A DNA stretch of 64,000 bases from the NCBI RefSeq assembly GCF_054482525.1, contig NZ_CM137006.1. The stretch is one strand, 5' to 3'. Position numbers: made by a program. This document shows, one piece after another, positions 24,001 through 27,000 of this stretch (the stretch's first letter is position 1; each line of letters begins with the position of its first letter).

Positions 24001-27000
24001 TGACAGCGTGAGTGTTTTTTCAGCCGCATTTTTTTGCGTCAGTACTTTATTATATTGCGGATCGCCAGGTTGCAGTTGCGACAGCTCTTGATTCAATGTA
24101 TTGACTTTTTTCTCCAGCGATTGCACCTTTTTATCGACCGTATTGTAATTATTATTGGCCTGATGCATGATGTCGTCGGCTTTTTGCGCGGAATCTAATG
24201 ACGAGGAGTAAGCGTCACTTAATTCACGAAACTTATTATGTGCCATTTCGTGTCGAAGCAGGGTGCTGTCAAGGTTATTATGCAAACGTGTTGTAATATC
24301 CTGATCGGCAATGCCTGTTAGATTACCCAAAATCATCGTCAGGCGGGCATCGTTCGTCTTTGCTGTAGTGGCGTTGTCGGAATCTGAAACCTGCATTTCA
24401 GGCGGAGCAAGCATAGGTTTGTTTTCAAGACGAGCGCGAATATCGTTATCAAGGGACTTCGGGTTTTTATTAAGCCGCATGGGATCAACTTGCGTTTTGT
24501 TGCTGTCCTGCAGTCTTTTTTCCGCATCGCTATACTGTGTGCGCAATGTTTCGCTGATTTGTTCAAACGTGATCGTTTGTCCCGTAATCGGTGCCGACAT
24601 AATTCACCTCCTTTTTAAGCTATCATCGGGTGTAATTAATTCTTTTTTATTTAACTCATGGCAGATGTTTATTCCCATCTAAAATGGCATCAACGGGAAA
24701 GTAAGTAATGTGTTTATTGTTATTCTTCTCATTTATTTTATCGCCATGGTTATTTTTTAAATCAACCGGGGCTTCCTCATGATATTTCCTGATTAACTCT
24801 TCAGGCGTAAAAGAAGACTTTTTTCCGTTTATGTTCATTTTGCCGACTCACTCTGTTTGAACTTCTTCTTCGGTATTGGCTGTCAAGAGTTCAAGATAAG
24901 CAGTAGCCATCTCTTTAACTTTTTCATTTTGGCTGTAGGTTACGACTGTATTAAATAACTCCGTGGCCATTTTAGTGTTTTTTAAGCCCATCTGGCATTG
25001 GCCCATATAATAAACTAAAGAGAAATCGTTATCGGGAGATAGCATTAAACAGATATGATACATGTCGAATGCCTTTTGATAATCTTTCTTCAACTGACAG
25101 ACGGCGGCATATCCTTTTAAATAGTTATAATTTTGGAAATCATAAATACAGAGAAATTTAAAAAAGAGCTCAGCTTCGTCAAGTCTTCCTTTTTCATAAA
25201 AGTTATAAGCGTAAGCATAAACGCCTTCAAGGGTATCCGGAGTAATGCCATGCAGCTCTGCAAGTGTTGCTCCCATACCTAATGCACGTTCGAACTTACT
25301 GGCAATTTCTTTATTTTCTTCTAAATCCAGATTTGCGCTTTCCATCTCTACTCTCTCCTTTCGAACATTCTTTGTTCAGACTTCACCATTTTTTAGAGGG
25401 GGGTGATATCAAAATTCGCTCATTTTTATGCCCATCCGTTGGGCTTCCTTTTCTGCATTAAAAACAAGTATTGTTTCAATGAGATAAGATTTTCTATGTG
25501 ATGAAATGAAAACAATGTAGAGGGAAATTTATCCACAATCCTGATGAACGGGTTCAATTTTGATTGGAATTTGAAAAAGCAGGTGATTTACTGATGTGCG
25601 AGCGTACGTCAGCGGCTGCTGGCCTGAGCGCGGAGGTGTGCGAAATTCACATATCCGGGCATTCCACCTTACCCAGCGCTTCCCAGTAGTTATTCTGATT
25701 ATTACGCTCCATCGCCACAATAGCTTCGCGGATATGTTGTTTGTTACTCTCATCAGACAACATTAATTTTTCCCACGCTTCGTCTGATAATGACGCCTGT
25801 GGCGTGCAAATTTTACGTAAATCTTGCAATACCGTGCTCTTTTCTTTTGCCGACTGTAGAGAACTGAATGGCGATTCGGCCTGAGAAATGGCTGGGAAAG
25901 TCAGGAATACGGTAATCATGAGTAGCATCGTTGGCTTCATAGCTGCAACCTTCTGCAAATGTGCATCGAATGAAGCATAAGTGTAGTTTGCTTTTGCCGC
26001 TCTCATCATGCTGTACGAAAGGTGTTTGCGTGGTCAGTAAGAAGTGCCAGTTTTATATACCTTTTTCTTCTATTCGATAGCTTTTCGTTTTTTAAATCGT
26101 AGTGATCTTGCCATTATAGTCAGTTAACGATTAAAAAAAGGATAAAAAAGTGAAACTGACAACACATCATCTACGGGCGGGGGCCGCATTATTACTGGCA
26201 GGAATTCTGCTGGCAGGTTGCGACCAGAGCAGCAGCGATGAAAAGCACATTAAAGTGGCGTTATTAATGGCGCAGAACAAGATGTCGCGGAAGTCGCTAA
26301 AAAGGTGGCAAAAGAGAAATATGGCCTCGATGTTGAACTGGTAGGATTTAGCGGTTCGTTGCTACCGAACGATGCGACAAATCATGGCGAGCTTGATGCG
26401 AACGTCTTCCAGCATCGACCCTTTCTTGAACAAGATAATCAGGCGCATGGTTATAAACTGGTAGCGGTGGGAAATACGTTTGTCTTCCCCATGGCGGGTT
26501 ATTCCAAAAAAATCAAAACAGTGGCGCAAATAAAAGAAGGCGCGACAGTGGCGATCCCCAACGACCCGACCAACCTTGGTCGCGCGCTTTTACTGTTGCA
26601 AAAAGAGAAGCTAATTACTCTGAAAGAGGGAAAAGGGTTACTACCTACCGCGCTGGATATAACCGAGAATCCTCGTCATTTGCAGATTATGGAACTCGAG
26701 GGGGCGCAGCTCCCGCGCGTACTGGATGATCCCAAAGTTGATGTGGCGATTATCAGCACCACTTACATTCAGCAGACCGGGCTTTCTCCGGTGCACGACA
26801 GCGTATTTATTGAAGATAAGAATTCGCCGTATGTGAATATTCTGGTAGCACGGGAAGATAATAAGAATGCAGAAAACGTGAAGGAATTTCTGCAATCTTA
26901 TCAATCATCCGAAGTCGCTAAAGCGGCAGAAACCATCTTTAACGGTGGCGCGGTGCCTGGCTGGTAATTCTCACTCATCCCGCGCCGGACGATTTATTTT

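Follow-up and report, generated by a model that had tools for sequence, protein, structure and literature searches.

A frameshifted nlpA is a lineage-specific pseudogene in a phylogroup D clone of Escherichia coli

Introduction

NlpA (lipoprotein-28, b3661 in Escherichia coli K-12) is a paralogue of MetQ (PDB 4YAH), the substrate-binding lipoprotein of the methionine transporter MetNI; MetQ has a gene of its own, within the metNIQ operon. Like MetQ, NlpA carries a lipid anchor and interacts with MetNI; for NlpA, methionine binding and this interaction are known from published work on the K-12 protein. The association of MetQ with MetNI requires the lipid anchor, and overproduction of NlpA has been reported to complement the loss of MetQ (PMC6697469). 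The nlpA deletion mutant of the Keio collection is viable, with a lower output of outer-membrane vesicles during stationary phase (PMC4302634). On the chromosome, setC, yicL and nlpA are the backbone genes which lead from selC to the selC-B/eip island, an accessory island known from EAEC 042 and ST69 (PMC7058095). We found nothing relevant in the literature on nlpA as a pseudogene. Repression of nlpA by Rns is reportedly the title subject of one paper.

Here we describe the nlpA locus in a stretch of 64,000 nucleotides from contig NZ_CM137006.1 of RefSeq assembly GCF_054482525.1 (hereafter the window, numbered from its first letter). An initial annotation of the window had described nlpA as disrupted by a one-base contraction in a G-run, and had proposed either a pseudogene beside an accessory island or a sequencing error.

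The nlpA locus

In the window nlpA occupies the same chromosomal position as in K-12, between yicS and yicL and near selC, and the gene order yicS - nlpA - yicL - setC - rhuM/yicT remnant - selC is also that of K-12. The locus has the following features:

26150..26967, + strand: nlpA pseudogene (lipoprotein-28, MetQ paralogue), 818 nt compared with 819 nt in intact alleles
26138..26142, + strand: Shine-Dalgarno-like AAGGA, 7 nt 5' of the GTG start
26150..26344, + strand: 5' ORF of 64 aa with signal peptide, lipobox, 13 native mature residues and 27 out-of-frame residues
26255..26259, + strand: deletion site GTGGC, placed by alignment and repair; the closest intact allele has GTGGGC (Val36-Gly37)
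26254..26967, + strand: -1 frame with the whole MetQ/NlpA substrate-binding domain, unlinked from the signal peptide

Counted from its GTG start (26150) through the native stop codon (26965-26967), the coding sequence measures 818 nt, which is not divisible by 3, and the three-G run at codon 37 lacks one G. The frame from 26150 reads MKLTTHHLRAGAALLLAGILLAGCDQSSSDEKHIKV and then continues out of frame up to a premature stop at 26342-26344. The resulting 64-aa ORF opens with MKLTTHHLRAGAALLLAGILLAGC, a lipoprotein signal peptide with the lipobox L-A-G-C (codons at 26210-26221, the cysteine being Cys24), goes on with DQSSSDEKHIKV, and then reads ALLMAQNKMSRKSLKRWQKRNMASMLNW before the stop. Read directly, the N-terminus (MKLTTHHLRAGAALLLAGILLAG followed by Cys24 and Asp25) has the appearance of a lipoprotein signal peptide, and the 13 native mature residues are Cys24-Val36. 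A Pfam search with the 64-aa ORF gave no match.

The -1 frame reads (S)GVINGAEQDVAEVAKKVAKEKYGL... through ...GGAVPGW to the native stop at 26967, and its only in-frame starts are GTG at 26305, which opens an ORF of 220 aa, and TTG at 26359. PF03180 matches residues 2-220 of this ORF over profile positions 21-236. In the list of ORFs on the + strand the two parts of the gene appear as neighbours, 26150-26344 (64 aa) and 26305-26967 (220 aa), which lie in different frames. The initial annotation had assigned the signal peptide and the MetQ-like body to different frames, and this is what we found (the frame from 26150 and the -1 frame of 26254-26967, respectively); it had mapped the break to gtggcg at about 26255..26260, and GTGGCG is located at exactly 26255-26260.

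The genes nlpA and yicL are convergent and their ends are 3 bp apart, so no downstream gene is placed under polarity by the frame break.

Repair of the frame and comparison with intact alleles

Inserting one G at the break, the gtgggcg which the initial annotation had expected to restore the frame, produced an ORF of 272 aa and, at this point, the sequence of the nearest intact allele, that of N3 (WP_000779408.1). The repaired product was 100% identical to N3 NlpA, and one more nucleotide differed between the two genes without changing the protein. The repaired translation scored 606 bits on NCBIfam NF007364 (the NlpA equivalog, cut-off 487), 495 bits on TIGR00363 and 313 bits on PF03180 (cut-off 27), the latter over residues 34-272. 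Its closest solved relative was E. coli MetQ (4YAH, E = 4.6e-110, residues 11-272). The window gene belongs to the NlpA family by descent, but it is a pseudogene, in which no single frame runs from the signal peptide to the binding domain (818 nt, with the break at codon 37).

K-12 NlpA differs from the repaired product at 4 of 272 residues; the two have the same signal peptide, and in both the lipobox LAGC is followed by Asp at +2. The K-12 gene is full-length, whereas the window gene lacks one base in codon 37 and encodes only 36 native residues. The two genes also differ in their start codon, which is GTG in the window and ATG in K-12, and in the sequence around the break, which is GTG-G(G)C in the window and GTT-GGC in K-12. 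In a six-way alignment, a single gap column was common to the window, PCN033, SCU-102 and 19KM1776; at this column the intact N3 allele reads AAAGTGGGCGTT (GTGGGC) and K-12 reads AAAGTTGGCGTT (GTTGGC). The alignment to K-12 nlpA which had been proposed as a check thus confirmed the break, but not the wording of the repair, as K-12 has gttggcg without gtgggcg and the three-G run is of the N3 type. Given the three-G run in N3 and the gap in the clone, the ancestral allele of the clone had GGG and lost one G.

As the repaired protein equals N3 NlpA and is four residues away from that of K-12, the frameshift is the sole lesion in the gene. This points to an inactivation that was a single event and a recent one.

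N3 itself has the neighbouring eip island and the same gene order as the window, and its 819-nt nlpA with GGG is intact. Its flanks are ~1.3% different from those of the window (89 mismatches in 6.9 kb), which places N3 outside the clone that carries the deletion.

Distribution of the deletion

A query of 901 bp across nlpA was 100% identical over 901 bp to three RefSeq complete genomes, and all other genomes among the matches listed span 902 bp. A probe of 71 bp centred on the deletion site had an exact match in 3 of 5,352 complete E. coli genomes; the 57 next-best matches listed were all 98.6% identical with a span of 72 bp, corresponding to the extra base. The three carriers come from different submitters, hosts, countries and continents: PCN033 from a pig, SCU-102 from a human rectal swab (California) and 19KM1776 from a dog (Switzerland). 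PCN033 is a porcine ExPEC strain, O11, of phylogroup D (PMC4578781), and SCU-102 is listed as ST973, phylogroup D (PMC11251922). PGAP calls the gene "lipoprotein NlpA, frameshifted" in PCN033 (PPECC33_RS19995), SCU-102 (HHJ21_RS21545) and 19KM1776 (AACG32_RS14765), none of which differs from the window in nlpA. Across the stretch of SCU-102 which matches the window, nlpA is the only gene called "frameshifted".

Beyond the complete genomes, we found 235 contigs with the exact 64-aa frameshift peptide and 385 with the matching 220-aa ORF; the index of the public collection (NCBI, ENA, Logan) lists the peptide in 330 blocks. At four of these loci, including one in a metagenome assembly, the sequence was read and is GTGGCG in each case, with the gene context unchanged. 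Other members of the clone are the assemblies GCA_045953735.1, GCA_900480295.1 and GCA_003324445.1. One of these extra loci has a synonymous SNP at 26721, inside the pseudogene, and others have SNPs in the flanks, which fits a clone that has diversified slightly since the deletion arose. The lesion is reproduced in many independent assemblies (three genomes, four loci and 330 blocks), as is expected of a true pseudogene. Of the two options offered by the initial annotation, a pseudogene beside an accessory island is the one that holds, with the same deletion in three complete genomes, the PGAP call in each and the island being selC-B/eip; a sequencing error is effectively excluded by the three independent complete genomes, the four further assemblies and the 330 blocks.

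Over 24-41 kb, each carrier is set apart from the window by 1-4 SNPs. In addition, 19KM1776 has a P4-like insertion of ~11 kb at selC and a split EipC-like gene, while in PCN033 iatC is shorter and split into two CDSs. The agreement between the window and the carriers would be circular if the window were itself one of the three. This was ruled out by the 1-4 SNPs which separate it from each; for 19KM1776 it was also ruled out by the lack of the selC insertion in the window, and for known carriers in general by a 7-bp deletion in adeQ which was found in 0 of 5,392 complete genomes. The window strain adds a fourth separately sequenced genome to the clone.

The gene adeQ (adenine permease, window 2910-4315) is split into ORFs at 2910-3977 and 3986-4315, with the break after 3958. 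An imperfect tandem repeat, GGCGGTC-GGTGGTC, is short of one of its units (7 bp, GGCGGTC) in the window relative to SCU-102. This deletion is either private to the window strain or an assembly error; it is seen in the window only, whereas the nlpA deletion is common to the whole clone.

Over 16.9 kb of neighbouring core genes, from yicJ to ligB, identity to the window reached 99% or more in the three carriers alone; the next best genome stood at 98.6%. As the only genomes at this level of identity are carriers, every sampled member of the clone has the deletion; it is fixed in all sampled members of a distinct clone and absent elsewhere.

Loss of nlpA is rare. At least 80% of an nlpA query was covered in 5,340 of 5,426 complete genomes, and the 5' 301 bp of nlpA were split or partial in ~39-44 complete genomes, so occasional independent disruptions do occur. 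A K-12-type NlpA which begins at Ala54 (protein P0004, 219 aa) was seen at contig ends in 549 collection blocks; an example is GCA_049902285.1, where the contig begins inside nlpA. This is probably another common lineage, in which a repeat or insertion sequence has entered nlpA at a fixed point. No example was found among the complete genomes listed.

Proposed origin and consequences

We consider it very likely that nlpA in the window is a true loss-of-function allele, passed on by vertical descent within one phylogroup D clone. In the ancestor of this clone, the members of which would be SCU-102 (ST973), PCN033, 19KM1776 and the window strain, a one-base deletion would have shortened the G-run of GTG-GGC (codons 36-37) from GGG to GG. 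Ribosomes that start at the usual GTG would then make a 64-residue prolipoprotein only. The 20 nt aligned upstream of the start, AAGGA included, are the same as in the intact N3 allele, and for this reason the truncated product is probably still expressed. Lipidation and cleavage by signal peptidase II would convert it into a lipopeptide of 41 residues in the inner membrane, without a binding domain. An Asp at position +2, as is found here, is the classical signal for retention in the inner membrane.

The break at codon 37 falls at residue 14 of the mature protein (counted from Cys24), and the whole of PF03180 (residues 34-272) is consequently missing from the exported product. The domain is encoded in the other frame without an export signal, and no functional periplasmic NlpA would be expected. 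Such a loss may well be tolerated, NlpA being dispensable and partly redundant with MetQ. The genes metN, metI and metQ are intact in PCN033, and as the nlpA deletion mutant is also viable, the loss should be tolerable; MetQ presumably covers the shared function. The frame break, its recurrence in many independent assemblies and its confinement to one clone are observed directly; that members of the clone make no NlpA protein, that the lipopeptide has the fate described above and that the loss has been selectively neutral are inferences.

The nlpA frameshift is a real, ordinary, lineage-specific pseudogene which public annotation already flags, and nlpA in the window should stay annotated as a pseudogene. 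Neither the genome paper of PCN033 (PMC4578781) nor the transposon-sequencing paper on this strain mentions nlpA. The frameshift is a reliable marker of the clone and the deletion site could serve as a one-base typing marker of the lineage. Strains of the clone, including the much-studied porcine ExPEC PCN033, would be natural nlpA nulls, which matters for work on vesicles, methionine uptake and envelope stress in this clone. Beyond such bookkeeping, the significance of the lesion is small.

Alternative explanations

The deletion might have become fixed because loss of NlpA benefits an extraintestinal or commensal clone, for example through fewer vesicles or an altered envelope. That every sampled member of the clone has the deletion, from pig, dog, human and metagenome sources, would agree with such a benefit, as would the reduction in vesicle production in the nlpA deletion mutant (PMC4302634) and the existence of other lineages with nlpA disruptions (~39-44 complete genomes, and the fixed-point cut in 549 blocks). 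However, hitch-hiking or drift gives fixation in one clone equally well, and loss is rare, with at least 80% of the query covered in 5,340 of 5,426 complete genomes. It should also be noted that 88 pseudogenes have been reported among the 4,923 chromosomal genes of PCN033 (PMC4578781), so that about one would be expected by chance in a window of ~55 genes. Adaptive loss is possible but unsupported, and we regard it as unlikely. The more specific proposal that loss of NlpA, or the 41-residue lipopeptide, helped the clone to spread in pigs, dogs and humans by way of a vesicle or envelope change seems likewise improbable; if the loss were indeed selected, nlpA would be an antivirulence-type gene or one that carries a fitness cost.

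Rescue of function is very unlikely. It would require either -1 ribosomal frameshifting within 26254-26341 or re-initiation at the GTG at 26305. The two frames do overlap by ~90 nt. Within this zone, at A_AAA_AGG (26299-26305), a backward slip of tRNA-Lys by one base before the rare AGG codon is conceivable, and low-level spontaneous -1 slippage could take place there. However, no canonical X_XXY_YYZ heptamer was found in the overlap (26252-26341), and the two-frame layout is not conserved, as nearly all other E. coli have nlpA in a single frame; neither of the features which mark programmed -1 frameshifting is present. In a slipped product the start of the domain would be altered, with 15 wrong residues replacing the 16 native ones (37-52). 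As for re-initiation, the GTG at 26305 does open an ORF of 220 aa which spans most of PF03180, but this ORF lacks the signal peptide, the lipobox and profile positions 1-20, and MetQ for its part depends on its lipid anchor for association with MetNI (PMC6697469). Furthermore, AAAAG directly abuts the GTG at 26305, which leaves no proper Shine-Dalgarno spacing.

Phase variation, in which slipped-strand mispairing in the G-run would switch nlpA on and off, could be suspected from the position of the indel, which falls in a mononucleotide run close to the 5' end and in a gene related to the cell surface, but is extremely improbable: contingency loci typically have ~7 or more repeats, and the tract here, GG with GGG as its ancestral form, is far shorter, is not a three-base run in K-12-type alleles (GTTGGC), is in the OFF state in all three complete genomes of the clone, and has this length in only 3 of 5,352 genomes, so that neither a long tract nor both lengths among close relatives were found, the clone members being equal in length.

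An error of sequencing or assembly, with a homopolymer miscall dropping one base from a real GGG, can be dismissed with the same firmness: one-base homopolymer indels are a frequent artefact and the window does have a second indel which no other genome shares (the 7 bp in adeQ), but the nlpA deletion recurs in three RefSeq complete genomes and four further assemblies including a metagenome, the exact frameshift peptide occurs in 330 collection blocks, the run is just 2-3 bases long, and SCU-102 has no other "frameshifted" gene over the matching stretch.

The eip island and other features of the window

The accessory island beside the nlpA pseudogene is the known selC-B/eip locus (7216-25345), and it separates nepI from yicS, which are direct neighbours in K-12. 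Nothing links the island and the frameshift mechanistically. The island contains:

7216-18333: iatC/eaeX
18383-20080: eilA
20283-21632: SipD-like tip protein
21676-22806: EipC-like protein
22819-24600: SctE/EipB
between SctE/EipB and the chaperone: 60-aa ORF
24848-25345: SycD/LcrH-type chaperone (EicA)

Within iatC/eaeX, positions 10669-16191 comprise nineteen tandem units of 291 bp (84% matches), which encode the Ig-like repeats. In PCN033, where the annotation divides iatC into two CDSs, the gene is shorter by ~2 kb; this reflects either real variation in repeat number or assembly collapse.

Between yicN and nepI, at 4936-5602 on the - strand, the window has genes for a RelE/ParE-family toxin and a helix-turn-helix protein (ORFs 5243-5602 and 4936-5259); K-12 has no genes in this gap. 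The ~11-kb P4-like satellite at selC in 19KM1776 (~23750-34975) includes an integrase, a primase-helicase, an ogr/Delta-like gene and a polarity suppression protein, and the window has no such satellite at selC. Beside selC, at 29631-29747, the window has a 117-bp rhuM/yicT fragment, the remnant of an older island. Between yicC and yicG, at ~47424-47701, there are two short gene fragments, BRO-family and DnaD-like, which look like a prophage remnant and are annotated as partial pseudogenes in SCU-102.
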